A DNA stretch of 64,000 nt from a virus (IMGVR_UViG_3300035703_000082:496-64495), one strand, 5' to 3'. Positions 20,001 to 63,384 are shown, numbered from the stretch's first letter. Notes: generated by a model not told the origin, from the letters alone. Numbers and translations are program-made.

Positions 20001-23000
20001 GCGTCACGTTGCCGCTTGCTGGGCCTGCAATGGTGAGAGACTTCATCCTGATGCCACCAGTGACAGCATTCACCGTGGCTGTGTAAGCTGTGGCGTTGGA
20101 CAAACTGTCAAAAACAACATCATCATGGCTTCTCGGCACAGACGCGCCTGAGCCGCCACCAGACGACGTAGACCAGCGGGCGGTGTCGCTCCAGTTGCCT
20201 GTGCCACCAACCCAGTAGCGTGTGCTGTCGGCAGGCTTGGCTGTGCGGTAGACAGGCGCTGCTGCCGTGCCTGTGCTGTTGGCACCTGCGTAGAACTCAC
20301 CAGGGCTTGTGGCGGCAAAGCCAATGGAGCCCATCGCAAGGTAGTCGATGCTGTCTGTACAGGCTCCAGCGAGGATGTGGGCAGTGCCTGTGCCAGTGAG
20401 CGTGACGACGTTGCCTGCTGTACCTGTCACCGTCCATTTGCCGAAGGTCTGTGCCGTGCTGCCAAGGGCAATGGTGTGGGCTACGGTTTTGGTCGAAGCG
20501 AGTTCGGTGAATTGGTTGTTGCCGACTATGGTCAGCGTGCTGGTGCCAGTTGTGCCGCCAATGGTGAGTTTGTTGTAGGAGAGGAATCCACCAGCGAAAG
20601 TGCGGGCGGTTGTGCTGGTGTCAGACAAAACAATGTTGGCAGTGTTTTTATAGAAGTTGAGGTTGGTTGTGGTTGGTGTATTCCAAACAGTGCCCGTGCC
20701 AGCCAATGTCCAAGTGCCAGAACCCATTTTTAGCGTTCTTGCTGTAGACCCTGTAATGGATACTACCCCAGCCGTGACGTTATACGACACAGCGTCAAAC
20801 GTGCCAGATGTTAGGGCCAGGGTACGTGTTGAGCCAAGCGACAACGCATCAGCAAGCTGGACAACACCAGTAACGGAATCTATCGTGATAGGACACCCAA
20901 ACGTAATACCGTTACTGGTGATGGTCTGCGTTCCACGTTTGGCGAACGTGATCGTGCCTGTCGTACTAGATGACGTCACACCCGTGCCAAACTTCCAATC
21001 GCCATAAACAAACGGAGTGTTAGTGCTGGTGGTGAGCGTCATCGCACTAGTCCGCAACGACGCATCAAACGTGCCGATGTTCCAAGCAGCATTGATGGTG
21101 ATGGTGCCCGTCACACTACCAGCAGCTTCATCAAACACAGCCGTGTCTTGTGCCAGCGGGAACTGATTGATGTCGGGCGTTCCACCAGACGATGGTGCCC
21201 AAGCCGTTGCAGACCAGTTCTGTGCTCCAGCAAGGTTCCAATAGACGGTCTTGGCCGCAGGGAAGGTGATGCCGCTGTTGCCGCCACAGTCGCCTGCACG
21301 GGTCGGAGAAGAGCCTGCTGCGGTGCCGGTAATGGTGATGTCGCGGAAGTCGCAGTCTGTGGCCGACAGTGTGCCCACAGTGAGTGTGCGGGTGGTGCCG
21401 AGGGTGTTTGAACGGACGAAGACGCGACGAACAGGGGAAGCGCCTGCAACGGTGAGGGTGCCGGTGATGGTGAAATTTCCGTTTACAGAAAGCGTCGCAA
21501 AACCCGCCGTTGTTGGTGCGGTAACAGTAATGTTGTTAAATGTGGCTGCCCCCGTAAGCCCATAAGTAATTGTAGGGCTACCGACTCTATTAAAGTTAAA
21601 ATTGTAGAAAGTCAACCCACTTCCGGATGTAGAAGCTACTTCGATACTCCCAAGAGAGTTTATTGTTGATATTGTTGAAGTCCCTGCGTTAAAAGTAAAA
21701 TTAGTTGTATTTCCAAAAGCACAAGCAGTGTTGCCATCGGTTGTAACTGTACTCGACCCCAGTGTTATCGTCCTGACGTTGCTGTTGCTGGACGACAGAG
21801 AGCCTGCGGTGACGTTGTAGTTTTTGGTGTCGAAGGTGCCGTTGGTGATGGTGAGGGTGTTACCACCGATGTTTAGCGCGTCGGCGAGTTCGACTGTGCC
21901 GCCGTAGGAATCGACGGTGATTGCACCTGAAAGAGTCTTCCCGGCGCTAGTAATAGTCTGTGTATTACGACCTGAAAATGACAAGATATTAGAATAGCTT
22001 TGAGTTACCCCACTACCAAGCACCCAATTTCCATACACCGTGTAAGCCGTCGATCCAGCCAACGTCATCGCGTTCGTGCGCGTAGACATCGTGACCGTAC
22101 CTGTGTACGGAACCGCGCTATCAAGCGTCACCGTAGCCGACGTATTCAGCCCCGTGTTCTCGATAACAGCCGTGTCTTGGGCCAGCGGGAAGTTGTCCGT
22201 GCTGACCGCGCCGCCAGAGCTTGCGGCCCAGTTGTTGCCGCTCCAGTTGCCACCAGCGGCTTGGTTCCAGTAGACGGTCTTTGGCGTGCTGAAGGTGATG
22301 CCTCTGCAGCCTCTCAGGTCTCCAACACGCGTGCCGCTGATGGGCGCGGCTGTGCCGATGACGTAAATGTCTCGGAAGTCTGCGTCGGTCAGGCTTGGGG
22401 CTGAGTTGATGGTGAGGGTTTGGGCGATGCCGTAGGTGGTGCCTCTGAACCAGACTCTGCGGTTGCCTGCTGTGCCGGTGGTGGAGAGGGTGCCGTTGAT
22501 GGTCTGGCGGGAGTCGAAGGTGACTTGACGAACGCCTGCGGAAGATGGTGCTGTGATTGTTAGGTTGTTGAAGGTGTTGGGGCCTGCTATTGTTAACAGA
22601 TTAGAGGTGGCTGCTGTTGCAGATACATTATAAAAAGTAAAACCTGCCGCAGCGCCTAAAGTAATATTCGTAGCACTATGAGTTAATTGAATAGTAGATG
22701 TTCCTGCGTTAAAAGTAAGATTGGTAGATAAGGTGAATACAAGAGGATTATTACCACTCAAGGATACAGTACTACTACCTAAATTAATGGTTCTTGCAAC
22801 AGAAGTTGACGAGTCAATGGCAAATGCCGAAAGATTGTAATTGGCTGTATCAAATATGCCTTGAGTTATTGTAAAATTTCCCCCGGCTGAGATTGTTAGC
22901 GCATCACCTAGTGTTACTGTACCTCCCGGAGCATTAATACCAAGCGTTTGAATAGTTTTTCCGGCAGTGGTCAAAGTTCCCGTGCCAGTTATTATTAGCG

Positions 23001-23286
23001 CCCCGGTATATGTAAACGTCATCCCTGCCGCAAGTACTAGCCCGCCTCCTAAAGTAATAGGAGAACTGCCCGCCAACGCTCCCGTAAATCCTGTGCAGTT
23101 GATGGACTTGGCACCAGTGTTGCCGGTAGAGATGGTGCAGGTGCCGGTGGAGGCAGCGTCAAAGAAAACGTCGTCAGCGCTGGTAGGGACGCTAGCCCCT
23201 CCAGCGCCACCAGACGTAGCTGACCACTTGGTTCCGGCAGTGCCGTCCCAAGCTGCTGTACCACCAACCCAGTACCTGTCAGCCAT
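17050..23286 (-). CDS. Giant repeat-rich tail fibre/adhesin-like protein (2,078 aa)
   Basis: T/G/S/A-rich beta-solenoid-like sequence; five YW-initiated repeat units; C-terminal S(D/E)TATGxD repeats and W-spaced tail. Confidence 0.75.
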   Translation of the reverse strand: MADRYWVGGTAAWDGTAGTKWSATSGGAGGASVPTSADDVFFDAASTGTCTISTGNTGAKSINCTGFTGALAGSSPITLGGGLVLAAGMTFTYTGALIITGTGTLTTAGKTIQTLGINAPGGTVTLGDALTISAGGNFTITQGIFDTANYNLSAFAIDSSTSVARTINLGSSTVSLSGNNPLVFTLSTNLTFNAGTSTIQLTHSATNITLGAAAGFTFYNVSATAATSNLLTIAGPNTFNNLTITAPSSAGVRQVTFDSRQTINGTLSTTGTAGNRRVWFRGTTYGIAQTLTINSAPSLTDADFRDIYVIGTAAPISGTRVGDLRGCRGITFSTPKTVYWNQAAGGNWSGNNWAASSGGAVSTDNFPLAQDTAVIENTGLNTSATVTLDSAVPYTGTVTMSTRTNAMTLAGSTAYTVYGNWVLGSGVTQSYSNILSFSGRNTQTITSAGKTLSGAITVDSYGGTVELADALNIGGNTLTITNGTFDTKNYNVTAGSLSSSNSNVRTITLGSSTVTTDGNTACAFGNTTNFTFNAGTSTISTINSLGSIEVASTSGSGLTFYNFNFNRVGSPTITYGLTGAATFNNITVTAPTTAGFATLSVNGNFTITGTLTVAGASPVRRVFVRSNTLGTTRTLTVGTLSATDCDFRDITITGTAAGSSPTRAGDCGGNSGITFPAAKTVYWNLAGAQNWSATAWAPSSGGTPDINQFPLAQDTAVFDEAAGSVTGTITINAAWNIGTFDASLRTSAMTLTTSTNTPFVYGDWKFGTGVTSSSTTGTITFAKRGTQTITSNGITFGCPITIDSVTGVVQLADALSLGSTRTLALTSGTFDAVSYNVTAGVVSITGSTARTLKMGSGTWTLAGTGTVWNTPTTTNLNFYKNTANIVLSDTSTTARTFAGGFLSYNKLTIGGTTGTSTLTIVGNNQFTELASTKTVAHTIALGSTAQTFGKWTVTGTAGNVVTLTGTGTAHILAGACTDSIDYLAMGSIGFAATSPGEFYAGANSTGTAAAPVYRTAKPADSTRYWVGGTGNWSDTARWSTSSGGGSGASVPRSHDDVVFDSLSNATAYTATVNAVTGGIRMKSLTIAGPASGNVTLAGSTAIDGIHGNVTLPATGLTRTYTGAITLSGSTSGKTLTTNGVTLASTITVNGVGCEWALGSALNSGTGQFIIREGGLDLSSYNLTAGELTLSSTPANTTKDVKFSSGTITLSSGFTFNTTETSRSSFTFNAGTSQLNISASGITFSGNNQTFYNVAFTSTSAGTVTINGANSFNNLSFTGITSAGLKIISVTANQTITGTFTCSAGTNATMRHFVRSDTIGTTRTLTCAAVSLTDVDFRDITIAGAAAPASGTRIGDCKGNSGVTFTAAANKYWNLAAGGNWGGAIGWATSSGGTPNINDFPLAQDTCFFEATGLNSGATVTINAAYNIGTIDMSARTTNTMTLARSVEPTIYGNWINGTGVSLSNNINTTFSGRTSQTLTSAGQTFTGGITVNSPSGSLTLQDAFTSNATSLTLTMGTFDAGAYSVTMSAGALSSSNSNTRTIAVGSGTWTLAGSGTAWNAATSTNLTVTGTGTISLTSASAKTFAGGGVSYSGITLNQGGAGTLTISSNNTFANITNTYKATGATTINFGTTTQTVGNFTAAGESGRVLTLTGTSASSPATLVLTSGTVTTPDYLTITGIRAYDLNTTWYAGANSTNNGSLGWLFQAAGGTTFNVSFSDTATGADAFSAALTLSASFSDTTTGSDTISAGLVFVVSLSDTATGADASSVVASVFGAQTAETVGIQDTLTVTASLSVALSDAASLVDSPTALVDFTASFADTAVASDAIAGGYVVLTAISESATGADAFAVAASVFTPSLTDTVTGTDAVVVLASSFSAEVSDTVVSTDAPDAAGSVFGSSLSDTATLFDLPSVAASTFGAALSDTATGADAPAALMVFPASFSDTATGSDALAAKMVFATAVAELAAGADATSALVIFVSAVNETAQGLDSPAVAASTFNPVVQGLVLALDAPAVAGSTFNVSLSDGGTITDVVVGGYLWNPIDDNQNPNWQNVVTAQSPGWVQINDTQAPGWTEIQT

Positions 23287-37267: not shown

Positions 37268-38821
37268 TTAGTAGTACGCTACTTTTCTAAAACTGCGAAA
37301 CTCCGGGGGGTCATCGGGCGCGTCTGACGGCAAGCCAATGAACCCGCCCATGCGCAGGCGCATCAGCGCCTGTATGCACGTATCCACGTAGTCGTCGTGC
37401 TCCCCGGCAGGGAACGCAGCGACTTCCTCAATGACTTCCTTTGCCCACCTAGTGTCCGGTGCCCACACACGCCCCGACACAAAGATGTCCGATACGGAGT
37501 TCAACCGCGCCGTCTTGTCTGACTTCGTCCCAACCTTGCCTCTGGAAGGCGAAAACTCCGACACCGGCACACCCGTGGCCCGCAGCTCCTGTATCAGCGG
37601 AGCGCCGGCAGCCTTCTTCTCGATCAGGCACGTGTCCGGCTGCCACTCCTTGTAGTACTCCAACGCCCGTTTCTTCAGCTCGGGGAACGTCCAGCGGTAC
37701 TTGATAGCGTCGAGCAGGATGATGTGCGCGTTGTTGTTGTCGTCCTCGTTGAACCACACGCCCCACGTGGTACATGCGCTGTAGTCGGCAGCGGTCTTCG
37801 TCTCGTGCGCCGTGTCCCACGACTGGATGATGTAGTCGCACTTGGGCGGGCGCTCGCGCTCCCATACCTGCCAGTGCTCGCGGCGGATGAGCGCGGCCAC
37901 CTCGCTCGTGGGGTTCTGCTGGTACTGCGCCTGCCAGAAGCGCGGGTCCATGCCCGCCCGCTTGGCCTGGAGCTGCTCCAGCGGCCACTGCCCGGGCCAC
38001 AGGCTCTTCTCCTCGTCGGTGTTCTCGTTGAGGATGGCGGGCAGCTCGACGATCTCCCAAGGCGTGGCGTCGGGGTTCTTGATCTGGTGGCTGATCAACT
38101 GGCCGGTGAGGTCGATCTGCGACCACCGCGTCATGATCACGATGATCGCCCCGTTGGGCATCAGGCGCTGCAAAGGGCCTGTCTGGAACCAGTTCCACGC
38201 CGCATCGAAGGGCGTGCGTGTGCCTGCCTTCAAGTCCTGCTCGGAGTGCGGGTCGTCAATGACGAACAGATCAGCTCCACGACCCGCGATGCTACCGCCC
38301 ACGCCAACCGCAAAATATTGACCGCCACTGGCGGTAGACCACTTGCCTGACGCTTTCTGGTCGTCGGCAACCTGCGTAGCGGGGAATATCTGGTGGTAAT
38401 CGGGCGTTTCCAGCAGGTTTCTGATACGTCGACCAAAGTCCTCCGACAAAGAGGACGTATGCGTACCCATGATGATTTTCTTCTCTGGGAAACGCCCGAG
38501 GTAGTACGACGGGAACAGAAACGACGAAAACTCCGATTTACCCATGCGAGGCGCGATGTTGATGATCACGCGCGTCTTCTCGCCCCTGACTACGGCGTCG
38601 AAAATGCTCGCCAGCTTGCGGTGATGCGGCCCTTCCTTGAACCCCGGGTAGATAGCGTGCGCGTAGCCCAGCACGCCTGTGCGTGCCGCCGAGAGCTTGG
38701 CCCGCTTCTCGCGCTCCTCCAGCAGGTCGAACAGCTCTGCCTTCTCCTTCACACTGAGCGTGGGCAGCGCCCGCTGCAGCGCGGCAGCTTCTGTGGCGGA
38801 GAGGAACGACGGCAGCTTCAC
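37268..38821 (-). CDS. terL: Terminase large subunit
   Basis: Walker A-like APRMGKS, Walker B FVIDDPH, nuclease SWDTA and HDDYVD. Confidence 0.9.
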   Translation of the reverse strand: MKLPSFLSATEAAALQRALPTLSVKEKAELFDLLEEREKRAKLSAARTGVLGYAHAIYPGFKEGPHHRKLASIFDAVVRGEKTRVIINIAPRMGKSEFSSFLFPSYYLGRFPEKKIIMGTHTSSLSEDFGRRIRNLLETPDYHQIFPATQVADDQKASGKWSTASGGQYFAVGVGGSIAGRGADLFVIDDPHSEQDLKAGTRTPFDAAWNWFQTGPLQRLMPNGAIIVIMTRWSQIDLTGQLISHQIKNPDATPWEIVELPAILNENTDEEKSLWPGQWPLEQLQAKRAGMDPRFWQAQYQQNPTSEVAALIRREHWQVWERERPPKCDYIIQSWDTAHETKTAADYSACTTWGVWFNEDDNNNAHIILLDAIKYRWTFPELKKRALEYYKEWQPDTCLIEKKAAGAPLIQELRATGVPVSEFSPSRGKVGTKSDKTARLNSVSDIFVSGRVWAPDTRWAKEVIEEVAAFPAGEHDDYVDTCIQALMRLRMGGFIGLPSDAPDDPPEFRSFRKVAYY

Positions 38822-39493: not shown

Positions 39494-39562
39494 GCAGCGT
39501 TTCGTTGCCCTCCTGTGCGGCCTGAAGGCCGCTTTACCCCGGCCTGGAGCCGGGGTTTTTTT
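39494..39562 (+). ncRNA. Candidate small RNA
   Basis: TTGTTT-N18-TATACT upstream; hairpin gcggcc-tgaa-ggccgc; terminator follows; no ORF. Confidence 0.4.
39537..39562 (+). terminator. Intrinsic terminator
   Basis: ccccggc-ctgga-gccgggg followed by T7. Confidence 0.8.
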
Positions 39563-39589
39563 GACTGGTAATGTCAAGGATTAGACATT

Positions 39590-39804: not shown

Positions 39805-39813
39805 TGCTACAAT
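39805..39813 (+). promoter_or_regulatory. Extended -10 early promoter
   Basis: TGcTACAAT upstream of the first rightward gene. Confidence 0.6.
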
Positions 39814-39889
39814 AGCTTCAGCGATTCGGGGTTCCGAGTCGCATCAACCGGGGGAGAAAGTCTCCCCCACTCTCTTGAAGGTAGCAATC

Positions 39890-40327
39890 ATGTCTAAGAC
39901 TCAAGTCCTCTCCCTGCAGCAGTTTGCCCACAAGCTCGGGCAGACCGTGCGGATGGTGCAATCCGCTTCCGAACCCTTCCACGCCCACTACGTCACCCTC
40001 GACGAGGCCGGCCGCAAGGCCATGCGGGACGCATGGATTCAAGCGCACCTCGAAGGCCAGGGCTATACCCCGGCCCAGGCCGAGAGCATCATGGGTGCGT
40101 CGCGCAAGGATCGGCACGCCGAGGATCAGCGCGGCTACGACCGGGCCCGGGCTGACTTCGCCTACCACGTGGTGCGCGATGCCGGCAACAACAAGGCCGA
40201 GGCAGTCGAGGTCGAGATCCCGGCGGAGCTGATCGAGGCCGCGAAGAAGCTCGCGAAGCTGGCCAATGCCTACGAGGACAGCCGCAAGCTGGCGGCGAAG
40301 GCGCTGGCGCTGGCCTTCGCGAAGTGA
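39890..40327 (+). CDS. First early protein, unknown function
   Basis: ATG at 39890 (MSKTQVLSLQQ) after GAAGG; strongly biased codons. Confidence 0.75.
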   Translation: MSKTQVLSLQQFAHKLGQTVRMVQSASEPFHAHYVTLDEAGRKAMRDAWIQAHLEGQGYTPAQAESIMGASRKDRHAEDQRGYDRARADFAYHVVRDAGNNKAEAVEVEIPAELIEAAKKLAKLANAYEDSRKLAAKALALAFAK

Positions 40328-40479
40328 GGCGGCAGCCGCGAGAGCGGCGGCACCGGGGGAGAAATTCTCCCCCATGCTGAGCGTAGCCCCTTGCGCCCTG
40401 CGGGGCGCTCGGGAGTGCGCTTGAAGCTCCCGTCGGGAGCGGCGTGCTGCAGGGCACAGCCCTGTGAAGGAGAGAGCAA

Positions 40480-40659
40480 GTGCTGAAGGAAACCCAACGT
40501 GACGCCCTGCGTGCGTTCAAGACCGAGCTGCGCCAGCGTGCGCAGGACGAGCGGGCGGCTGCCCGTCGCAAGGCACAAGCCCTGCGCGTAGCGCAGACGA
40601 AGGAAGCCCAGGTCGACGCCTGGGCGCAGGCCCTGCGCGGCGTGACGCCGCTGAAGTGA
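40480..40659 (+). CDS. Small basic helical early protein (59 aa)
   Basis: GTG start after GAAGGAGAG; hand translation VLKETQRDALRAFKTELRQ... Confidence 0.55.
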   Translation: MLKETQRDALRAFKTELRQRAQDERAAARRKAQALRVAQTKEAQVDAWAQALRGVTPLK

Positions 40660-40715
40660 CGCCGTAGGCGAAGCATCGGGGGAGAAAGTCTCCCCCATCT
40701 ACAGGAGAAAGAGTA

Positions 40716-40940
40716 ATGGCCTACTACCTCTGCATCGGCGTGGACACGCTTGATGACGCGTGCCGCTACGAGACGAAGAAAGACGCCCTCGACACCTTCC
40801 GGGATGTCGCGCAAGGGCTGGCCCGCTTCGGCCAGACCGTCTACGGGACGGTGCACATCGCAGACAAGCGCAGCGAGTGCGTCGACGAGCCCGACTTCTA
40901 CCTCCGCCTCGGTCCGCGCGGCGGCGTGCAATGCCTCTGA
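40716..40940 (+). CDS. Small early protein
   Basis: 74 aa, RBS AGGAG. Confidence 0.7.
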   Translation: MAYYLCIGVDTLDDACRYETKKDALDTFRDVAQGLARFGQTVYGTVHIADKRSECVDEPDFYLRLGPRGGVQCL

Positions 40941-40952
40941 AGGAGTGAGCAC

Positions 40953-41145
40953 CATGAACCTCAAGCAAGAAGTCCGCGCCGCCTGGGTGGCGCAAGAGAT
41001 CAAGCGCCTCTGGCCCCGAGACGGGGCCCCGCGAGCCTTCAAGACCGAGCGTCCGCCGAAAGCGGCTGCGCAGCAGCCGAAGGAACAGTCATCACGCGCA
41101 GAAGCGGCGCAGCCACCGGGGAGAATTTCTCCCCGGGAGGGTTGA
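40953..41145 (+). CDS. Small early protein
   Basis: MNLKQEVRAAW..., RBS AAGGAG. Confidence 0.55.
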
Positions 41146-41184
41146 ATTTCCGAGGGTGGGGGAGAATTTCTCCCCCATTTATTT

Positions 41185-41586
41185 GTCAAGGATTTGTCAG
41201 GGTTTACCCTTAAAAAAATGTCAAGGTTTTGACAACAGGTTGACATCTACCAACCTCTCGAATTTGCGTGCCACAACTTGCGCCGCGCTAACTCGTTGAT
41301 TTCCAAGGGCTTTTTTCATTCTTCTTCTTATCTTTATTATATATATATATATATAGAAGATAGTATTTATTTATCTATATATTTGTCTTTTTCCTTTTAT
41401 GGGAGAGAGAGAGAGAGAGATCTGTCTATGTATCGGTTTTTTGGGTCTAGTCTATGCTAGACCCCGCCTTTCCCCTTGCGCGACAACGACTTACCGTGCC
41501 ATAATCTGTGGCACGCCCGCTGGAGACCTTGGTAGCTACCACGTATGTCTAATCCTTGTCAGGGTAAACCCTGACAAATCCTTGAC
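41185..41586. repeat. Perfect 26-bp inverted repeats flanking a 350-bp AT-rich segment
   Basis: 41185-41210 gtcaaggatttgtcagggtttaccct is the exact reverse complement of 41561-41586; (AT)n and (GA)n tracts inside. Confidence 0.9.
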
Positions 41587-41614
41587 CGAAAACACTAGGA
41601 AAAAGATTCCGAAA

Positions 41615-42442
41615 ATGCAAAAAATCTGCACGCAATGCGAAAAATCCCGCCCGCTCCAGCTCTTCCGCCGCTTTTCGGGCCGGAAAAAGATCCTGCGCAC
41701 AATTTGCAACGTCTGCGACCCTCCGCGCACGCTCCGGCAGATGACGCCCGCTCAGCGGGTGCAGGAAGTCCACTATGGCCGCGCCAATCCGCTGGTTGTC
41801 TCCAGCATGGCTGCGCTTGAGCGGGCGCAGCGTTACGGGATCGAGGTCTCGGGGCGCAGCGCCCGGGTGCAGGCCGGTCTGCGCCGTCGTGCATGGGAAG
41901 CGGCCATCCTGGGCCCGCTTGCGCGGGAGATAGCCTGGGCTGAAGCGCTAGATGCCCGCTACGGGCATCAGATGGCCCTCTGGGCCGATCCTGGCCCGCG
42001 CCAAGGGGGTGGCCTACACCCCGACCTTGCAGCGCCTTGGCGGGCCTTTACGCAAGCCTACGCGCATCTTCTGCGGCGCATGTTGGGCGACGCTCGTGCC
42101 GAGCTTGCCCGTGTCGCGCTCGGCACGAGCGAGCTGACTCCCCGTTTTCAGCGGGGGGCTGCGCAGCAGCCCACGGGTCTACGCCCAGGGCGCGGCCCGC
42201 GCCCACGCAACCCCACGCCAGAGCAGGCAGACCCCTGCACTTACGCCCTGGCCCACGAGATCGGGCGTCTACGACGCCTGTACGCAGCCTGTCAGCCCAT
42301 CCCGGGCAGGCGGGCACCCCGCAGCCCCTGGCTGCTGTCCTGGGGGGACACCAGTCCCCCGTCCTCAACGGGGGAGAAAACCTCCCCCAAATTCCCGGGC
42401 GCATCCGCGCCTGACTCAACCCCGAAAGGAAAGCAATCATGA
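41615..42442 (+). CDS. Protein with N-terminal CxxC...CxxC zinc ribbon
   Basis: Likely start MQKICTQCEK...CNVCD; AGGA upstream. Confidence 0.55.
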   Translation: MQKICTQCEKSRPLQLFRRFSGRKKILRTICNVCDPPRTLRQMTPAQRVQEVHYGRANPLVVSSMAALERAQRYGIEVSGRSARVQAGLRRRAWEAAILGPLAREIAWAEALDARYGHQMALWADPGPRQGGGLHPDLAAPWRAFTQAYAHLLRRMLGDARAELARVALGTSELTPRFQRGAAQQPTGLRPGRGPRPRNPTPEQADPCTYALAHEIGRLRRLYAACQPIPGRRAPRSPWLLSWGDTSPPSSTGEKTSPKFPGASAPDSTPKGKQS

Positions 42443-43044
42443 AGACCAAGACCAACTCCTCCCCCTCCGCCAAGCCCACCCGCGCCGACCTCCGTGCTGC
42501 GCTCACCAGCGCCAGCGATTACACGTTGCGCAGTCTCAGCCGCGTGCACACCCTGTCGGCACTGGCTCCGCTGCTGCTGACGCACCCCTTGGTGCTGCGT
42601 ACCTACCGCACGCTCAGCAGCGCCCTGCCTGCCGGCCAGGGCCCGTGGGTCGACATCAGCCAGACGGCGGACAGTGTGCGGTTCGGTGCGACGCTGTACG
42701 AGCTGGACTCGTTCAAGGACGAGTGCTTGCTGCAGGCTCTGGAGCCCTTCGCGGATGCTGCCGACACCTGGGTGGCGGACTCCACCGACTGGACGTACAG
42801 CGCCCGACCCAACCGGGACTACAGCTTCGTGCAGCGTGTCGAGCTGGACCCGTACCTCTCCCCCATGCCTGCGCCTCTGCGCCGTGCGCTCTTGCGTGCT
42901 GGTGACTTGGCCCCGCAGGCGTTCGACCTGCGCGTGGTGGTCTGCGCCTACGTGAAGACGGACAGCCCGCTGTGCCGCGTCGTGGTCAAGGGCATCGAGG
43001 AGAAGATCGTCAGGGAGGAGATCAAGGAGATTGTGTGCGCCTGA
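42439..43044 (+). CDS. Early protein, unknown function
   Basis: 201 aa, RBS AAGGA. Confidence 0.7.
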   Translation: MKTKTNSSPSAKPTRADLRAALTSASDYTLRSLSRVHTLSALAPLLLTHPLVLRTYRTLSSALPAGQGPWVDISQTADSVRFGATLYELDSFKDECLLQALEPFADAADTWVADSTDWTYSARPNRDYSFVQRVELDPYLSPMPAPLRRALLRAGDLAPQAFDLRVVVCAYVKTDSPLCRVVVKGIEEKIVREEIKEIVCA

Positions 43045-43097
43045 TCGGCGCGTAGCGTGTGGGGGAGAGGTTCTCCCCCGTCTTTGAAGGAGTTGAC

Positions 43098-43172
43098 GTG
43101 ACCACCGACGACAAGCTGCTGCTCGCAGCGTACACGCTCATCGCAGCCCTGCTCATGCTGGGCATCATCTGA
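43098..43172 (+). CDS. 24-aa hydrophobic peptide
   Basis: GTG after GAAGGAG; VTTDDKLLLAAYTLIAALLMLGII. Confidence 0.5.
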   Translation: MTTDDKLLLAAYTLIAALLMLGII

Positions 43173-43191
43173 AACTGAAAGGAGAGAAGCA

Positions 43192-43365
43192 ATGAACGGA
43201 TACATCGCGTTTTACAAGGGCCGACAGATCGAGGTCCGTGCCGATACTGCCTACGAGGCGCAGCAGAAGGCAGCCGCCCTGTTCAAGGCACGCAAGTCCT
43301 ACGAGGTCACCGTAGTCCTGGCCGAGAAGGACGGCCAGCAAGCGGTGCACAACCCGTCGTTCTGA
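43192..43365 (+). CDS. Small early protein (57 aa)
   Basis: MNGYIAFYKGRQIEVRADTAYEAQQKAA...; RBS AAGGAG. Confidence 0.7.
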   Translation: MNGYIAFYKGRQIEVRADTAYEAQQKAAALFKARKSYEVTVVLAEKDGQQAVHNPSF

Positions 43366-43378
43366 AAGGAGAGAAGAC

Positions 43379-43480
43379 ATGCCATCCTGGCACCAACTCA
43401 AGGCAGGGCTTCCCAAGCTCAGCCACCCTACGCAGTGGTCGAGCTACAACCCGACCCGCCCGACGGGCCCGAAGGACTGA
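43379..43480 (+). CDS. 33-aa ORF
   Basis: RBS AAGGAG then MPSWHQLKAGLPKL...; short. Confidence 0.35.
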   Translation: MPSWHQLKAGLPKLSHPTQWSSYNPTRPTGPKD

Positions 43481-43481
43481 C

Positions 43482-43766
43482 ATGACCGCCAAGACCCAAC
43501 CCATCACCAGCATCGACTACGCAGGGCGTACCTGCGCCTTGCGCACCTCCGGCGGCACCGCCGTCGGCCAGGGCTTCGTTGCGCTGTCCCACAGGGGCGA
43601 GCGCTGGGTGATCACCGGGGGCCGTGCTCCCCACAAGGAGAGCAGCAGCGGCAAGGTGTGGGCCATGCCCTACCCGGGCGGCTACCCCGAGTCCGAGTTC
43701 TTCCCCGGGGTCTTCGACCTCGTGTGGGTGCCATCAACGCCCGCCAAGACCCAGGCCCACGCCTGA
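43482..43766 (+). CDS. Early protein, unknown function
   Basis: 94 aa, AAGGA upstream. Confidence 0.6.
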   Translation: MTAKTQPITSIDYAGRTCALRTSGGTAVGQGFVALSHRGERWVITGGRAPHKESSSGKVWAMPYPGGYPESEFFPGVFDLVWVPSTPAKTQAHA

Positions 43767-43865
43767 TACCAACCCGGGGGAGAAGTTCTCCCCCATCAAC
43801 CCGTCGCCGCTGCGGCCCAGCGGCAGCTTGCCCTGCAACGCAGGGCGTTCCAAGGAGAGAGCATC

Positions 43866-44276
43866 ATGTTCGACATCAACACCGCCATCAACACCGCCAT
43901 CGCTGCCGCCGTGGCCGAGGCCACCAAGCCCCTGATCGAGCGCATCGCTACGCTGGAGGCGCAGCTCGCGCAGGCTACGCCTGCTCCGCAGGTGGGGGAG
44001 GCGGTGTCCGCCTACCTCGACAACGCCGAGTCCTTCTGGCACCGCATCGAGTGCTTCGTGCAGACGCGCACGGCGGACGCCGTGGACAAAGCGGTGGCCG
44101 ATGCCATCGACGCCCATCTGGAGGACGCCGGTCACCTCGACGAGGACGACATCGACACCAAGATCGAAGAGGCCATCGAGCGCCACGAGGAGAACAATAC
44201 GCACGGCGACAACGACGACATCGAGGAGATCGTCCAGAGGCTGCTGAACAGCGCAAGCATCAGCATCACCGTCTGA
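43866..44276 (+). CDS. Highly acidic helical early protein
   Basis: 136 aa, about 29 D/E versus 8 K/R by hand count; RBS AAGGAG. Confidence 0.75.
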   Translation: MFDINTAINTAIAAAVAEATKPLIERIATLEAQLAQATPAPQVGEAVSAYLDNAESFWHRIECFVQTRTADAVDKAVADAIDAHLEDAGHLDEDDIDTKIEEAIERHEENNTHGDNDDIEEIVQRLLNSASISITV

Positions 44277-44302
44277 CCTGCTCACGCAGGTCCAGGAACC
44301 CC

Positions 44303-44343
44303 TTCCCACAGGTTCGGGAACCTGATATAGTCAAACCTTTGAC
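44303..44343 (+). promoter_or_regulatory. sigma70 promoter overlapped by two palindromic operators
   Basis: TTCCCA-N17-TATAGT with TGn extension; CAGGTT-N4-AACCTG in the spacer; GTCAA-ACCT-TTGAC over the -10/start site. Confidence 0.7.
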
Positions 44344-44426
44344 AGACCCGGGGGAGACTTTCTCCCCCACCCGTCGCCCCTGCGGTCCAGGGGCACGCAT
44401 GCTGCACCGCAGCAAGGAGAGAAGCA

Positions 44427-45419
44427 ATGGCTCACGAAATCATGATCAAGAACGGTGTCGCTCAGTACGCCTCCACTCAACGCGAGTGGCACGGGCTGGG
44501 GGCACTCATGCAGCCCAACCAGCCCATCGAAACTTGGGCGCGAGACGCAGGCATGGACTACAAGGTCCAGCGTGCCTACCCCCGCTACGCGGTGGAGCGC
44601 ATCGAGCCCGACGCCGTGTACATCCCCGCGCACAAGCTGCGCCAAGTCGACGACAAGGTCGTGCTCTTCCGCTCGGACACCCACGCTCCCCTGGGCGTGG
44701 TCAGCGACGGCTACAAGGTCGTGCAGCCGAGGGAAGTCCTCGACTTCTTCCGCGAGTGGGCCGAGGCCGGCGGACTCACCATCGAGTCGGCAGGCGTGCT
44801 GTTCGGGGGCAAGCGCTACTTCGCAACTGCGAAGCTCGCAGACGGTGTCTGCGTGGACGGGTCCAAGGACAAGCTCGTGCCCTACGCGCTGCTGTCGACC
44901 TCTGCCGATGGCTCGCTGGCTACCGAGGGTCGCTGGACGACGGTGCGTGTGGTGTGCAACAACACCCTGCGCATGGCCCGGGAGGGGGCTACTGCCTTCC
45001 GCGTGACGCATCGCTCGGAGTGGAAGCCCGAGAAGTTCCAGGCCGTCATCGAGCAGGCGCAAGCCGAGTTCGGCACGTTCATGGAGACGACGCGCAAGCT
45101 CGCCGCCATCCGGGTCGAGTCCAAGCTGGCCGAGGAGATGACCGTGGCGCTCTTCAAGAAGGGCACCGAGACCGATGCCGACAAGGTGCGCGAGTCCCGT
45201 GGCTTCGCCTCTGTCATGTCCCTGTTCGCCGGGGCCGGCAAGGGTGCGATGCTGGAGACATCGCGCGGTACGGCCTGGGGCTGGCTGAACGCCGTCACGG
45301 AGCACGTTGACCACCATGTCCGCGCACGCTCGGACGAGAACCGCACCGCCTCGGCCCTCTGGGGCCCGGGCGACGCCCTGAAGCAGCAGGCTGTGGAGAT
45401 TGCCCTGGCTGCGGCGTGA
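44427..45419 (+). CDS. DUF932 / TIGR03299-like phage-plasmid protein
   Basis: WHGLG, VLFRSDT..PLG.VS..YKVVQ, T.VRVVCNNTL, GTAWGWLNAVTEH.DH. Confidence 0.85.
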   Translation: MAHEIMIKNGVAQYASTQREWHGLGALMQPNQPIETWARDAGMDYKVQRAYPRYAVERIEPDAVYIPAHKLRQVDDKVVLFRSDTHAPLGVVSDGYKVVQPREVLDFFREWAEAGGLTIESAGVLFGGKRYFATAKLADGVCVDGSKDKLVPYALLSTSADGSLATEGRWTTVRVVCNNTLRMAREGATAFRVTHRSEWKPEKFQAVIEQAQAEFGTFMETTRKLAAIRVESKLAEEMTVALFKKGTETDADKVRESRGFASVMSLFAGAGKGAMLETSRGTAWGWLNAVTEHVDHHVRARSDENRTASALWGPGDALKQQAVEIALAAA

Positions 45420-45445
45420 GCCGCTGCGCACGCGCAGCACAACCC

Positions 45446-45467
45446 GGGGGCTACGGCCCCCTTTTTC
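45446..45467 (+). terminator. Intrinsic terminator
   Basis: gggggc-tacg-gccccc followed by T5. Confidence 0.7.
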
Positions 45468-45488
45468 ATCCCTGAAAGGAGCATCACC

Positions 45489-45791
45489 ATGAACACCCAG
45501 TCCACCATCCTGACCTCCGCCGTCGACCGGCTGGCCGACATCAAGGCGCAGATCGCTGCGCTCCAGGCCGAGGAGGCCGAGCTGAAGCAGTTCCTCATCG
45601 ACTCGGGCGAGCCCGTGATCACGGGCAGCAAGCACCGCGCCACCGTGTCCCTGTGCGACGGGCGGGCCGTCACCGACTGGTGCGCCATCGCCATGCGCTT
45701 CGAGCCCTCGCGCCAGCTCATCACCGCCCACACCAAGGTGGGCGAGCCGTTCCACACCGTGCGCCTGTCGGCACACAAGACCAGCAAGTGA
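45489..45791 (+). CDS. Small coiled-coil protein
   Basis: 100 aa, RBS AAGGAG; DRLADIKAQIAAL. Confidence 0.7.
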   Translation: MNTQSTILTSAVDRLADIKAQIAALQAEEAELKQFLIDSGEPVITGSKHRATVSLCDGRAVTDWCAIAMRFEPSRQLITAHTKVGEPFHTVRLSAHKTSK

Positions 45792-45804
45792 AAGGAGAAG
45801 CAGC

Positions 45805-46038
45805 ATGTACATCGACCGCGACCGAGTGACCTACCTCGACATTGACCGTGACGAAGACGGGCGCTACCCACGCCCTTCATCCTGGCAGACCTTCACATGC
45901 AGGAAGTGTGGCGAGCCCGCCACTGCCGACTGGCAAGACACCGGCATCGGTGCCTACGAGTACTGGGGTGCCAAGGGTGTGGACAAGCGCATGGAGCTGC
46001 TGAGCGACTGCTGCGGCGCAGAGGTCTACGAAGACTGA
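45805..46038 (+). CDS. Small Cys-containing protein
   Basis: CRKC...SDCCGAEV; RBS AAGGAG. Confidence 0.65.
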   Translation: MYIDRDRVTYLDIDRDEDGRYPRPSSWQTFTCRKCGEPATADWQDTGIGAYEYWGAKGVDKRMELLSDCCGAEVYED

Positions 46039-46096
46039 TACCGACTGATACCAACCCGGGGGAGACTTTCTCCCCCACAACCTGAAGGAGAGCGCA

Positions 46097-47207: not shown

Positions 47208-47292
47208 CGCTACCGCGCTGCATCACTCAACGCTCTGCAAACGCAGGGCGTTTTTATTGGCTCGGCGCTTTGCGCCGCACAGGAGAGTACGC

Positions 47293-51715: not shown

Positions 51716-52018
51716 ATGGCAAAGACACCAGAGAAAATCGTCAAGGACATGTGCGTCGAGGTGCTGAAGACTTACGGCGCGTATTACTTCTTCCCGGTCA
51801 TGGGCGGCTACGGACGCTCAGGCATTCCGGACATCATTGCTTGCCTCAAAGGACACTTCATCGGCATCGAGTGCAAGGCCGGGTTCAACAAGACCACGCC
51901 GCTGCAGGACAAAGAGCTTGCGGCTATATCTGCAGCAGGCGGCACAACGCTCGTCGTGCGCGAAGACACGATCAACTTCCTCATCGAGGAACTCAGGAGG
52001 ATCAAGCATGGACATTAA
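51716..52018 (+). CDS. VRR-NUC / PD-(D/E)XK nuclease (resolvase-like)
   Basis: GIPDII.C..G.FIGIECKA...T.LQ. Confidence 0.85.
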   Translation: MAKTPEKIVKDMCVEVLKTYGAYYFFPVMGGYGRSGIPDIIACLKGHFIGIECKAGFNKTTPLQDKELAAISAAGGTTLVVREDTINFLIEELRRIKHGH

Positions 52019-54509: not shown

Positions 54510-54720
54510 AGTCAACTACGGCCAGCAGTACATCGATGTTGTCACGCACAGCAACTACACGGGCCGCGCGTTCAAGTCGGAGGAGCTGTCCGACACTTTT
54601 TGGCACGAGCTGACGCACGCCATCCTCTACGAGATGAAGAGCCCGTTGCACAACGACGAGGCGTTCGTCACCAAGTTCTCCGGCCTACTCAACAAAGCCG
54701 TGCTCTCGGCTAAATTCTGA
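54421..54720 (+). CDS. Small HExxH metallopeptidase-like protein
   Basis: TFWHELTHAIL...E motif; AGGAG RBS. Confidence 0.7.
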   Translation: MEIPKQIQVGKRVYSINKRRKPRRRLTVGEVNYGQQYIDVVTHSNYTGRAFKSEELSDTFWHELTHAILYEMKSPLHNDEAFVTKFSGLLNKAVLSAKF

Positions 54721-56357
54721 TGTCCACACCCATCACATGGTCCCACAGCGGGCTGAAGGACTTCGAGGGTTGCGCTCGGCGCTACCACGAGGTCAAGGTG
54801 CTGAAGAAGTTCCCCCACAAGGACACGAAGCACACGCTCTACGGCAAGGAAGTGCACAAGGCCATCGAGCTGTACGGCAGGGACGGCGTGCCCATGCCGC
54901 CGGCACTGGCGGACTTCAAGCCGGCGGTTGATGCGATCCTCGCCAAGCCTGGACGCAAGCTGTTTGAGCATGAGATGGGCGTGACCGCAGACCTGCGGCC
55001 CTGCGCGTTCGACGCGCCTGACCGCTGGGTACGGGGCATCGCGGACCTGCTGATCATCAACGACGACAATCTGACCGCGCGTGTGGTGGACTGGAAAGGG
55101 CTGGCACTGGATACGCCAATACCCACGCCGCAAGGGTGGGCGACGATGGGTAGCCTACAGGTGGGTGACCTTGTGTTTGATGCGCAGGGTAAGCCGACAC
55201 GCGTTGTCGGCAAATCGCAAGTTAAGCACATCCCTTGCTACAAGATAACTTTCAGTGACACGACGACGGTCGTCTGCGACGAAGAGCATTTATGGAAGCT
55301 TGCAAGCGGGAGGGTCGTTGGCGTACGCGACTTGACGGGAAAGCGCAACAAAAAACAGCGCGTTAAGCCGCCGCGAATCGCCGTTGCTGCGCCGCTTGCG
55401 CTTCCTGACATTCCGCTGCCTATAGACCCGTACGTACTAGGTCTTTGGCTTGCTGATGGCAAACGGGCATCAAGCGAGATAAGCAAACCTGATCTGTTCG
55501 TGTGGGAGGAAGTGCAGCGTAGAGGGTATGCAGTTAACATGGAAACTGGTGGGAGCAAGAGCTGCCCCACCCGCACAGTAAAAGGTCTGCGTACGCAGCT
55601 TGTAAGCTGCGGCCTTCTAGGGGCGAATAAACGCATACCCCCGGCATACCTGCGTGCAGGATATTCGCAGCGCCTCGATCTTCTGCGGGGGCTTATGGAC
55701 GGCGACGGCAACGCGAATCCAACAAGAAAGCAGGCCGTGTACACGACAACATCAAAAGAACTGAGCAATGATGTCTGTGAGCTGCTGTCCTCACTGGGGC
55801 AGCGCCCGCTTCAAAGCACTGTTACGGCTAGAGGATTCAATACTACGACAACCGCGTATCCGGTTTCGTTCCGTCCTATCGGGATTAACCCGTTCCTGCT
55901 TCCGCGCAAAGCGGAACGCATCGACGCACGGTGGGGCGCAGGAGACAGTGCAACTAGAATAGTCGTGTCTGTTGAGCAGGTTCCGACTGTACCCACGCAG
56001 TGCATAGCCGTTGAGTCAGAAGACCATACGTTTCTGTGCACAGAGCGTATGGTGCCGACGCACAACACCGGCAACGACAAGTACCCGGACAGAGATCAGC
56101 TCGTGCTGATGTCGCTGATGGTCTTCACGCACTTCCCTCATATCCGGCGCGTCTCCTCGGCCCTGATGTTCGTCGTCAAGGGTAGCATGTTCAAGCACCG
56201 CATGGAGCGAGACGAGGCGGAAGAAACGTGGTGGCGGTACCGGGAGCGCGTGGCGAAGCTGGAGGCCGCGCATGCCAACAACGTGTGGAATCCTTCGCAG
56301 AGCCCGCTGTGCGGCTGGTGCCCCGTGAAGAGCTGTGTGTTTCATCCTGACCACTAG
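54720..56357 (+). CDS. PD-(D/E)XK (Cas4/RecB-like) exonuclease interrupted by an intein
   Basis: WSHS.LKDFE.C, G.E.H, RGIADL, VVDWK|TG, QL..Y-like segment, PLCGWCPV..C; spliced length 222 aa. Confidence 0.88.
   Translation: MSTPITWSHSGLKDFEGCARRYHEVKVLKKFPHKDTKHTLYGKEVHKAIELYGRDGVPMPPALADFKPAVDAILAKPGRKLFEHEMGVTADLRPCAFDAPDRWVRGIADLLIINDDNLTARVVDWKGLALDTPIPTPQGWATMGSLQVGDLVFDAQGKPTRVVGKSQVKHIPCYKITFSDTTTVVCDEEHLWKLASGRVVGVRDLTGKRNKKQRVKPPRIAVAAPLALPDIPLPIDPYVLGLWLADGKRASSEISKPDLFVWEEVQRRGYAVNMETGGSKSCPTRTVKGLRTQLVSCGLLGANKRIPPAYLRAGYSQRLDLLRGLMDGDGNANPTRKQAVYTTTSKELSNDVCELLSSLGQRPLQSTVTARGFNTTTTAYPVSFRPIGINPFLLPRKAERIDARWGAGDSATRIVVSVEQVPTVPTQCIAVESEDHTFLCTERMVPTHNTGNDKYPDRDQLVLMSLMVFTHFPHIRRVSSALMFVVKGSMFKHRMERDEAEETWWRYRERVAKLEAAHANNVWNPSQSPLCGWCPVKSCVFHPDH
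55098..56066 (+). mobile_element. Intein (323 aa) with LAGLIDADG endonuclease; class 3 signature
   Basis: GLALDTPIPTPQGW start; block B DEEHLW; LGLWLADG and LRGLMDGDG; block F QCIAV; block G PTHN followed by Thr+1; AT-richer codons. Confidence 0.9.
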
Positions 56358-63152: not shown

Positions 63153-63384
63153 GAGAGGGCAGGGGTTCTTTGTCCCTGCCCTCGATCTGGAGGCTGTGAA
63201 GGAAGCGGTGCTCCGAGATGCAGTGCGACACCGCGTGCGCGGTGTCGAGGCTGCCTACGGCATCAAGCAGGGGAAGCTGGGAGTGTTCTTCTATCGAAGA
63301 GTGCGCGGGCTCGCTGCGCGATTTCGATCTTCCTCTGCCGTGCCAGATCGAGCTTCTCCCTTTTTTCCGCAGGACTTAGCGTAG
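63115..63384 (+). CDS. Small putative DNA-binding protein (paralog of 46935-47207)
   Basis: LPWTQLERGQGFFVP...GVFFYR. Confidence 0.55.
   Translation: MPTFRNLPWTQLERGQGFFVPALDLEAVKEAVLRDAVRHRVRGVEAAYGIKQGKLGVFFYRRVRGLAARFRSSSAVPDRASPFFPQDLA

Follow-up and report, generated by a model that had tools for sequence, protein, structure and literature searches.

The window analysed here, a stretch of 64,000 nt from the 66,647-bp genome of an uncultivated phage, contains an early operon whose gene boundaries are marked by ten near-identical hairpin-forming palindromes. The features of this region, numbered from the first letter of the window, are the following.

39805..39813, + strand: extended -10 promoter element TGCTACAAT, read in the sequence; the motif recurs in related loci
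39850..39868, + strand: hairpin 1, 8-bp stem, loop AAG, in the 5' leader; the gp1 start codon lies 22 nt on
39890..40327, + strand: gp1, the first early gene, 145 aa, all-helical; candidate cognate factor of the hairpins
40355..40373, + strand: hairpin 2, loop AAT, 27 nt past the gp1 stop codon
40376..40450, + strand: second conserved structured leader element (GAGCGTAGC...AGTGCGCTTGA...GGCGTGCT)
40678..40696, + strand: hairpin 3, loop AAG, preceded by a stop at 40659 and followed by a start at 40716
41116..41136, + strand: hairpin 4, 9-bp stem, loop ATT, sharing sequence with the final codons of ORF 40955-41145
41157..41177, + strand: hairpin 5, 9-bp stem, loop ATT, then ATTTATTT; end of the first gene block
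42343..42360, + strand: eleventh copy, GGGGGAC-ACCA-GTCCCCC, the type used throughout a sister lineage
42370..42388, + strand: hairpin 6, imperfect, 7-bp stem and 5-nt loop
43061..43079, + strand: hairpin 7, loop GGT; natural junction at 43081
43776..43794, + strand: hairpin 8, loop AGT; natural junctions at 43774 and 43794
44350..44368, + strand: hairpin 9, loop CTT; natural junctions at 44349 and 44369
45446..45466, + strand: canonical intrinsic terminator within the early operon; natural junctions at 45443
46058..46076, + strand: hairpin 10, loop CTT, with a 10-bp tandem duplication (46033-46052) ahead of it
47229..47258, + strand: canonical terminator, where the hairpin-bearing early unit probably ends; natural junctions at 47221-47224

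The early transcription start is predicted near 39820, about 30 nt 5' of hairpin 1. The ten GGGGAGA-N3-TCTCCCC palindromes at 39850-46076 were identified by a pattern search with one mismatch allowed, and their cores start at 39851, 40356, 40679, 41118, 41159, 42371, 43062, 43777, 44351 and 46059. Only 0.01 palindromes would be expected by chance, and a count of ten was reached in 0 of 100 shuffles. The first-pass annotation had described ten copies and none elsewhere, which was confirmed, since all ten were matched and relaxed patterns found no further GGGGAGA-type copy outside the array in the whole phage genome; the eleventh copy, at 42343, is of a variant type. The centres of copies 1-10 are also as listed there (AAG, AAT, AAG, ATT, ATT, AAA, GGT, AGT, CTT, CTT), which makes seven different loops. 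The stems are 8-9 bp as described, except in copy 6, where the closing pair is an A.C mismatch and the structure is therefore in fact a 7-bp stem with a 5-nt loop. The reported position between a stop codon and the next RBS applies to most copies, but predicted ORFs reach with their 3' ends into copies 4 and 6, and copy 1 is located in the 5' leader with no stop codon ahead. The gap between hairpin and start codon is just 19-22 nt at copies 1, 3, 7 and 10. Both the flank CTGATACCAACCC, common to 43763 and 46045, and the 10-bp duplication were read directly in the sequence. A 13-nt 5' flank is common to hairpins 8 and 10, and the terminator at 45446..45466 has the same 5' flank (CAACCCGGGGG). 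Hairpin 9 is immediately preceded by a promoter-like site (44303-44331) and a GTCAA-N4-TTGAC palindrome, and a DUF932 gene lies 3' of it.

The element is family-wide, as such hairpins are present in hundreds of IMG/VR relatives in the same first 5-10 kb of the early region. In the first sample the arrangement was observed in 38 of the 62 loci with at least 1.5 kb of early region, giving 177 distinct hairpin copies (246 once a second sample was added), and complete relatives carry 4-13 hairpins, all in the first 5-10 kb after the conserved extended -10 promoter. An upstream stop codon is found within 15 nt of the hairpin start in 92 of the 177 copies, and an RBS-linked start codon 15-25 nt past the hairpin end in 55. 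The stem sequence is lineage-specific, and minority hairpin types coexist inside single genomes. Stems are almost always perfect (4 imperfect copies vs 177 perfect ones), with no tolerance of G.U pairs; the apical pattern G-W-S-A / T-S-W-C was invariant in the first sample, the bases at the loop edge are subject to a symmetry rule, and loops are found in flipped form. Centres of 2, 3, 4 or 5 nt occur with identical arms, both across sister lineages and inside single genomes, and some hairpins show a stem extension to 11-14 bp in single copies. In some relatives the hairpin can form the tip of a longer conserved helix, and the counterpart of the leader element at 40376-40450 has an apical part that can be formed by the family hairpin. 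Some family hairpins are followed directly 3' by a canonical terminator. A search of bacterial genomes for the element returned scattered matches only, in unrelated taxa.

The hairpins are predicted to be transcribed, with a conserved extended -10 element 5' of the first gene. Of 108 related loci, 49 carry the motif TGnTAnAAT 58-91 nt 5' of the first early gene and none has it on the opposite strand, and the promoter scan detected no promoter behind the hairpin at any copy. An RNA hairpin of about -16 kcal/mol (computed about -15.7) was formed in every folded context. The hairpins have the GC-rich stem-loop of an intrinsic terminator; the U-tract is missing at nine of the ten copies in this GC-rich genome, hairpin 5 being the sole copy flagged by the terminator scan. 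Relative to the genes, the flanks are laid out as A-rich, C / stem / A, U-rich (in the family, 48% of copies have C at -1, 46% have A at +1, and T reaches 49% at both +2 and +3), and they are weakly terminator-like. A-rich upstream flanks were counted at 22 family copies vs T-rich downstream flanks at 25, with no excess of T-tracts over mirror A-tracts. The reverse-complementary loops had been taken as evidence that the element occurs in both orientations. This did not hold, as the flanks keep their polarity: 5'-C / stem / A-3' is present in 56 of the 177 family copies and its mirror T / stem / G in 19, and the flank CAAC occurs 68 times vs twice for GTTG. The flanks fail to flip with the loops; therefore, the element is one-way relative to the genes and the centre alone flips. 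The perfect stems, the symmetric loop edges and the loop flips are explained no less well by a constraint on the DNA or by homogenisation than by an RNA structure.

Gene replacements, indels and rearrangements, both among relatives and within metagenomic populations, end at hairpin edges. Homology blocks shared with close relatives start or stop at hairpins. In the relative L121, whose terminase is 99% identical, the first gene is replaced between hairpins 1 and 2, and an extra gene-plus-hairpin unit is present with hairpin repeats on both sides, hairpin 3 being duplicated around the extra cassette. Gene content and order vary among relatives, the order also among complete genomes. In assembled metagenomic contigs, 6 of 42 junction endpoints fall within 3 nt of a hairpin edge vs about 0.7 expected (41158, 43081, 43774, 43794, 44349 and 44369); conserved RBS repeats and ordinary terminators are the other junction sites. 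The comparison of relatives' breakpoints that the first-pass annotation had proposed thus bears out its cassette boundaries.

Since changes between relatives end at hairpin edges, the closest known analogue is the stem-loop half of the promoter-early stem-loop (PeSL) of T4-type myoviruses, minus its fused promoter (Arbiol et al. 2010, PMC2839356; Comeau et al. 2014, PMC4122927). Lineage-specific stem-loops punctuating a plastic early region have been described for T4-type phages (PMC2839356, PMC4122927), with stems such as A3-4G3-loop-C3T3-4 or AGNA-loop-TCNT (PMC4122927). The repeat system, which had been called undescribed, is therefore new for this phage family, but not in kind. In both systems a short conserved stem-loop with a lineage-specific consensus recurs where small early genes of unknown function adjoin, the flanks are A/T-rich and terminator-like, and the region is hyperplastic, with indels, replacements and reshuffling between close relatives ending at the elements. 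The present phage differs in having no sigma-70 promoter fused behind the stem-loop and in belonging to an unrelated podovirus-like family, whose nearest cultured relatives have 45-48% terminase identity. Moreover, the stems are far more uniform in its family, and the hairpin type tracks one early gene, which is unreported for PeSLs. Minicircles excised from between elements are a further trait of the T4-type PeSL.

That gene is gp1. A subcluster-1 gp1 was present in 10 of 10 genomes with GGGAGA arms, and such arms were absent from all 52 genomes whose gp1 belongs to another family; the second sample gave 12 of 12 against 0 of 22. The gp1 family and the hairpin type switch jointly, contrary to the phylogeny of the terminase and of other early genes, and the remaining early genes of this phage are closer to those of a GACA-type sister lineage than to those of GAGA-type genomes. 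On the terminase tree, the gp1 state changes 4-7 times with the hairpin type in step, although well-supported branches offer just 3-4 independent contrasts (sign test p = 0.25). No other protein of the genome has this hairpin-linked switching pattern. Exceptions are L123, in which a subcluster-1 gp1 is followed by GACA-type hairpins, and L398 and L410, in which it is accompanied by GGGGAAC arms. The gp1 model (pLDDT 84) is all-helical with no known fold, and yielded no significant structural match and no recognisable nucleic-acid-binding fold. The co-switching suggests a protein-hairpin specificity pair, in which the first early gene product may be the putative reader of the hairpins. However, gp1 is flanked by hairpins 1 and 2, and so the association could be one of linkage.

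The reading preferred here, to which a probability of about one half is given, is that the hairpins are boundary elements of a plastic early operon, which act on the transcript, serve as exchange points and are read by gp1. The operon would be transcribed by the host RNA polymerase from the conserved extended -10 promoter, and the stem-loops would act on the early transcript through leaky termination or attenuation, 3'-end protection or processing, or insulation of cistrons. Within a genome, about 17-30 bases are identical from copy to copy, and the hairpins are therefore also the sites of exchange, deletion, duplication and reordering of early cassettes among co-occurring relatives, the step of this scheme that was observed. 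Because the stem is lineage-specific and switches jointly with the gp1 family, gp1 is the probable reader, acting as lambda N does on nut or as an early shut-off factor or translational repressor on its own sites. As in the lambda N/nut (boxB) system, a hairpin stands in the leader ahead of the first gene of the early operon, hairpins occur 5' of terminator-like structures, and the protein family and the hairpin sequence co-vary among relatives, here with exceptions. The differences are that there are ten sites rather than two, with no boxA, no GNRA-like pentaloop and no conserved loop, and that gp1 is a folded helical protein according to its model and a putative binder, whereas N is a disordered arginine-rich peptide that binds its hairpin RNA and alters termination. 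In phage T7, RNase III processing sites lie between the early genes in a polycistronic RNA made by the host polymerase, and the polycistronic early RNA of the present phage likewise has related hairpins between its cistrons. A stem of 8-9 bp is too short for RNase III, and only the leader element at 40376-40450 nears the needed size.

It is also conceivable, but unlikely, that the palindromes are duplex-DNA operators with incidental hairpin potential, at which a dimeric early protein, probably gp1, acts as a roadblock and shuts off or autoregulates the operon. Stoperators of this kind in cluster A mycobacteriophages, bound by L5 gp71, are asymmetric 13-bp duplex sites spread across the whole genome. 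Both systems have many copies of one short site at the gene boundaries of an operon and a candidate phage-encoded regulator, but the present palindromes are perfect, vary in their centres and occur in the early operon only. Both arms are near-perfect to the consensus with no G.T excess, the loop edges obey a symmetry rule while the centre flips freely, and the centre length is mostly uniform inside one genome. Arms of 7-8 bp around a short centre would place half-sites about one helical turn apart, one site is located between the promoter and gp1, and the covariation of hairpin type with the first early gene resembles that of heteroimmune repressor-operator pairs. However, centres of 2, 3, 4 and 5 nt are all found between the same arms, so that a fixed half-site spacing is not kept; gp1 proteins 46-50% identical to one another pair with N2 and N3 sites, and single copies carry palindromic extensions of up to 14 bp. 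The variable centre and these extensions fit a folded hairpin and not a rigid dimer operator. Moreover, no site overlaps a promoter, neither a helix-turn-helix nor another DNA-binding fold was found in gp1, and the promoter-like sites already have the separate GTCAA-N4-TTGAC palindrome. The dimer-operator option of the first-pass annotation is thus weakened, although it has gained gp1 as a candidate cognate protein.

Another doubtful possibility is that the hairpins have no sequence-specific reader. They would then be structural RNA hairpins, leaky terminators or stabilisers, kept identical by recombination and template-switch correction, and the gp1 correlation would reflect linkage. The mixed hairpin types inside genomes and the recombinant L123 are consistent with this, as are the junctions at RBS repeats and ordinary terminators; flip-pair loops are an expected product of template switching, and PeSLs have been accounted for in a similar way (PMC2839356, PMC4122927). 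On the other hand, all of the approximately ten dispersed hairpins differ from the sister-lineage type while the intervening genes are orthologous, gp1 alone among the proteins switches with the hairpins, and the apical pattern did not vary in the first sample.

It is very unlikely that the hairpins are dedicated site-specific recombination sites, such as attC-like sites or the ends of a small palindromic mobile element, at which a structure-specific enzyme moves cassettes. Such a system would account for junctions lying exactly on hairpin edges, for the gene plus its 3' hairpin behaving as a cassette in L121 and L123, and for the longer 5' flanks common to two copies together with the local duplication. 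Flanking 4-nt direct repeats, of the kind that target-site duplication by a MITE/REP-like mobile palindrome would leave, showed a weak excess (16 observed vs 8.8 +/- 2.9), which is inside the control range (maximum 18). The earlier statement that no recombinase is visible was too strong, as a PD-(D/E)XK exonuclease gene is located at 54720-56357 and a weak Hjc-like resolvase candidate at 51716-52018; the proteins that were scanned included no integrase, HUH enzyme or transposase. In contrast to the integron attC, an imperfect palindrome with extrahelical bases that is served by an integrase, the stems here are perfect, and extrahelical bases and R/L boxes are absent. Given the junctions at RBS repeats and terminators, the lack of an integrase-like gene and the absence of attC features, a dedicated site-specific system is less likely here than recombination between short conserved stretches. 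The suggested analogy to PeSL or attC sites therefore stands as a description of PeSL-like cassette boundaries and fails for attC.

DNA hairpin promoters of the N4 type, extruded by supercoiling and read by a virion-delivered RNA polymerase, are largely refuted, because no RNA polymerase gene was found in the phage by Pfam, PHROGs and PDB searches, and the giant virion protein (at least 3028 aa) that closes the late operon matched the N4 mini-vRNAP with an hhalign probability of only 0.3% (family profile) and has homologues with LPD38 and related domains only. At an N4-type hairpin promoter, transcription begins about 11 nt 3' of the loop centre. In N4, the early promoters need particular bases in the loop, and their sequence is conserved from -17 to +1 (PMC4496689). 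The short GC stem and 3-nt loop resemble N4 P1-P3 (PMC4496689), the hairpins recur in the initial part of the genome, adjoining the packaging genes and just 5' of early genes, and the C.A boundary would appear as a G.T wobble in the template strand. However, the loops vary in sequence and length, the stems are longer, a conserved host-type promoter lies upstream and canonical terminators directly follow some copies. A role as a DNA-entry signal, also proposed earlier, found no support.

The hairpins may act at the RNA or the DNA level, and action on the transcript is the reading proposed here. If gp1 reads the hairpins, the array would constitute the regulon of the first protein made by the phage.

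The features on which the argument depends are distributed along the two strands as follows.

1-39432, minus strand: late genes, with terminase (37268-38821), portal, major head protein and two giant ORFs
39805-39813: extended -10 element, TGCTACAAT
39850-46076, plus strand: hairpins 1-10, the ten palindromes of the early region
From 39890 on, plus strand: small early genes, the first of which (39890-40327) encodes gp1, a protein of 145 aa
42343-42360: an eleventh hairpin of another type, GGGGGAC-ACCA-GTCCCCC, found in a scan for all perfect hairpins
3' of the small early genes, plus strand: DNA polymerase A, exonuclease, helicase and DUF927 primase

The phage is a member of a large freshwater and subsurface lineage without a close cultured member. 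The closest cultured phages, which are the pelagiphages HTVC027P and HTVC023P and Planktothrix phages, share 45-48% terminase identity with it, and the DNA matches to GenBank phages are short and restricted to the DUF932 gene and one further gene (a hypothetical protein in the matched record). Hundreds of relatives were gathered from IMG/VR by a palindrome scan and then a terminase scan (at least about 600 in each of two terminase scans), while single-sequence queries with gp1 yielded two new loci only. Several other genes deserve a remark. The exonuclease (54720-56357) is of the PD-(D/E)XK type and is split by an intein-like, LAGLIDADG-type insert. A 100-aa protein immediately upstream of the DNA polymerase (51716-52018) is kept in all relatives and weakly matches the archaeal Holliday-junction resolvase Hjc (E = 0.0098). 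For the 2078-aa ORF at 17050-23286 (minus strand), no family was matched and just one of ten related genomes had a homologue; it probably encodes a variable host-recognition protein.

A pattern search for GGGGAGA-N3-TCTCCCC, in which at most one mismatch was allowed, returned exactly ten sites, all within 39851-46075, against a chance expectation of 0.01. Relaxed patterns gave no further copies of the GGGGAGA type in the 66,647-bp phage contig containing the window, which bears out the statement of the first-pass annotation that ten palindromes occupy the early region and that none was noticed elsewhere in the window. In short form, the element is GGGGGAGA-N3. The originally described geometry, a stem of 8-9 bp around a centre of 3 nt, also holds, save in copy 6, where the closing pair is an A.C mismatch and the hairpin effectively has 7 bp of stem and a loop of 5 nt. 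The longer flank attributed to two of the copies was recovered on reading the sequence (13 nt, common to copies 8 and 10), as was the 10-bp duplication at 46033-46052. In the perfect-hairpin scan, the density of hairpins in the 40-44 kb stretch was several-fold above that in most other parts of the window. An Rfam search gave no match to the hairpins. The eleventh hairpin is a single copy of the sister-lineage type, located 10 nt upstream of the only imperfect copy, and gives the impression of a remnant of an older hairpin type next to a newer one. The canonical terminator at 45440-45466 has a 5' flank, CAACCCGGGGG, identical to that of hairpins 8 and 10, as if it had been derived from, or converted into, the same element.

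The relatives indicate that this is a real, family-wide hairpin system, punctuating a plastic early operon that is transcribed by the host polymerase. Their first hairpin is found some 1.0-1.1 kb away from the terminase start, directly before the first early gene, and later copies are spread across the next 5-10 kb. The stem type depends on the lineage (GGGAGA, GGGACA, TAGGACA, TTGACA, GTGTCA, GGGTCA, AGAGAGA, GGGGAAC and GGGGAAA, among others), and the apical pattern G-W-S-A / loop / T-S-W-C was invariant in the first sample. The sister lineage (terminase identity 91-95%) carries GGGGGAC-N4-GTCCCCC, together with some N3 and N5 copies, and another lineage has arms identical to those of the window around a centre of 2 nt. 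Single genomes can hold mixed hairpin types and centre lengths, palindromic extensions of up to 14 bp are private to some copies, and in relatives a longer conserved leader helix can be capped by the hairpin. Such variability argues for a folded hairpin and against a duplex operator of fixed geometry. A second conserved structured leader element is present at 40376-40450, where GAGCGTAGC, an inner hairpin, AGTGCGCTTGA, another hairpin and GGCGTGCT follow one another. It occurs upstream of some early genes, in several copies in L137, L148, L133 and L123, is long enough for a processing site, and in relatives can have the family hairpin as its tip.

The hairpins mark the recombination joints of the early cassettes. 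Early gene order varies among complete relatives, and in comparison with L121, a related locus with a 99% identical terminase, homology restarts exactly at hairpins 1, 2 and 3. This relative has a different first gene between hairpins 1 and 2, as well as an additional gene-plus-hairpin unit with hairpin repeats on its flanks. In contigs from four metagenomes, variant junctions were found at 41158, 43081, 43774, 43794, 44349 and 44369; thus 6 of 42 junction endpoints lie within 3 nt of a hairpin edge, where about 0.7 would be expected. Other junctions involve repeated RBS sequences (43195 or 43367 to 43477) or lie beside the canonical terminators at 45446 and 47229. In a test for target-site duplications, 4-nt direct repeats around the hairpins showed a weak excess that stayed inside the control range.

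The same type of breakpoint evidence defined the PeSL (promoter-early stem-loop) elements of T4-type phages, whose stem-loops also take lineage-specific consensus forms (PMC2839356; PMC4122927). The stem-loop part of the PeSL is therefore the closest known counterpart, shared features being lineage specificity and position at recombination joints. However, the PeSL has a fused promoter and the hairpins described here have none, and they belong to an unrelated, uncultivated phage lineage; a promoter-less variant of the PeSL stem-loop part is the closest description. Of the initial proposal of cassette-shuffling sites, the T4-like half agrees with the joints at hairpins, whereas integron-like sites are unsupported.

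In 49 of 108 loci, the extended -10 motif TGnTAnAAT precedes the first early gene by 58-91 nt, and on the opposite strand it occurs in none of the loci. Given its position in the window, hairpin 1 comes to lie some 30 nt inside the leader of a host-polymerase transcript. As RNA, the hairpin has a folding energy of about -15.7 kcal/mol and formed in every context folded, with the ribosome-binding sites left unpaired. Approximately half of the family copies begin within 15 nt after the upstream stop codon, and about one third end 15-25 nt ahead of an RBS-linked start codon. The flank consensus of 246 distinct copies (A-rich, C / stem / A, T, T, Y, T), along with the excess of CAAC over its complement GTTG (68 vs 2) and of C/stem/A over its mirror (56 vs 19), indicates an element oriented with the genes and resembling a weak intrinsic terminator. 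Only copy 5 passed a terminator scan in this GC-rich genome, and no family-wide bias was found in U-tract orientation (T-rich downstream in 25 copies, A-rich upstream in 22). The suggestion that the element occurs in both orientations thus applies to the loops, which form reverse-complement pairs, but not to the whole element with its fixed flanks.

The bases at the loop edges follow a symmetric rule, G.T pairs are not favoured in the stems, and imperfect copies are very rare, so that a G.U wobble test for the structured strand had very few to draw on. Near-perfect stems, symmetric loop edges and flipping loops are explained no worse by duplex recognition or DNA-level homogenising (e.g. template switching) than by RNA structure; the level at which the hairpins act, RNA or DNA, is one that we infer. 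Among sequencing runs registered as RNA, none contained the region.

A strong terminator without an upstream gene (39536-39556) is kept in relatives and overlaps weak, sub-threshold Rfam matches at 39502-39563 (anti-hemB, SorX and a beta-proteobacterial toxic sRNA). After the tandem hairpins 4 and 5 comes an AT-rich island (41178-41600) that contains (TA)n and (GA)n runs. A 26-bp inverted repeat encloses it, and TTGACA-like and GTCAA-N4-TTGAC motifs lie on its flanks; similar (TA)n islands are present in relatives, e.g. L398, L410 and L396.

Promoters of the phage N4 type, in which DNA hairpins are read by a virion RNA polymerase, were also considered. The contig ends interrupt the largest protein of the phage (at least 3028 aa; 2-5695 and 63263-64000, minus strand), and its two parts are out of frame across the join. 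Its family, that of a giant virion protein, is marked by an HExxH metallopeptidase motif and, at the C-terminus, an LPD38 domain, which identify a polyvalent ejected protein, and the polymerase domain is absent. Searches with Pfam, PHROGs, PDB sequences and homologue annotation revealed no RNA polymerase, and the family profile matched the N4 mini-vRNAP domain with a probability of 0.3%. Promoters of the N4 type are thus unsupported. Mimicry of host CRISPR repeats or REP elements is unsupported too, as the bacterial genomes among the matches listed gave scattered single matches in taxa unrelated to one another, with no signal of a host. A few unrelated MAGs (loci L232-L311; Magnetococcales, Mailhella and Anaeromyxobacteraceae) do have the exact 19-bp palindrome on many of their contigs, and in a deltaproteobacterial MAG (L278) it forms a tandem array with a 33-bp period; probably, such copies are REP-like or terminator repeats of independent origin. 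The proposed role as a DNA-entry signal is unsupported.

The apparent coupling of hairpin type to the first early gene, as read from sequence comparison, is the most interesting new lead. When the first early genes were clustered, each of the ten genomes having GGGAGA arms proved to carry one and the same gp1 family, and such arms were absent from all 52 genomes with other gp1 families; a second sample gave 12/12 vs 0/22. Mapped on the terminase tree, gp1 switches family between four (well-supported branches) and seven times, and the hairpin type follows; three contrasts were concordant, none discordant and one mixed, a number too small for significance. The other early genes of the window are 56-82% identical to those of the GACA-type sister lineage vs 27-68% to those of GAGA-type genomes; the backbone therefore follows the terminase, and gp1 and all the dispersed hairpins switch jointly. 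No second co-varying protein was found among the proteins of the genome. Exceptions are L123, in which the gp1 family of the window is followed by GACA-type hairpins, and L398 and L410, in which it accompanies GGGGAAC arms; minority hairpin types inside single genomes are a further exception. The predicted gp1 structure is all-helical and confident (pLDDT 84), and the model has no significant match in PDB, AFDB clusters, BFVD or a wide VIA search.

The boldest reading, held tentatively at a probability of roughly 0.3, is that gp1 and the hairpins may be a specificity pair of a new kind. This small helical protein without a known fold would read the stem-loop, as RNA or extruded DNA, at each cistron boundary of its own operon, and by doing so would govern the entire early programme through read-through, stability or shut-off. 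If the pair were exchanged, phages that are otherwise alike would fall into compatibility groups, both regulatory and recombinational.

Early regions of this kind are where one would normally look for anti-defence and host-takeover genes. For this lineage, the hairpins provide a simple, checkable rule for the cut-and-paste points of the accessory early genes, and they carry the PeSL idea over to phages other than the T4 type and to a promoter-free element. Should binding underlie the co-variation with gp1, this would be a new regulator-hairpin system in which specificity variants occur naturally, and the hairpin would be usable as a marker delimiting early cassettes in metagenomic phage contigs.
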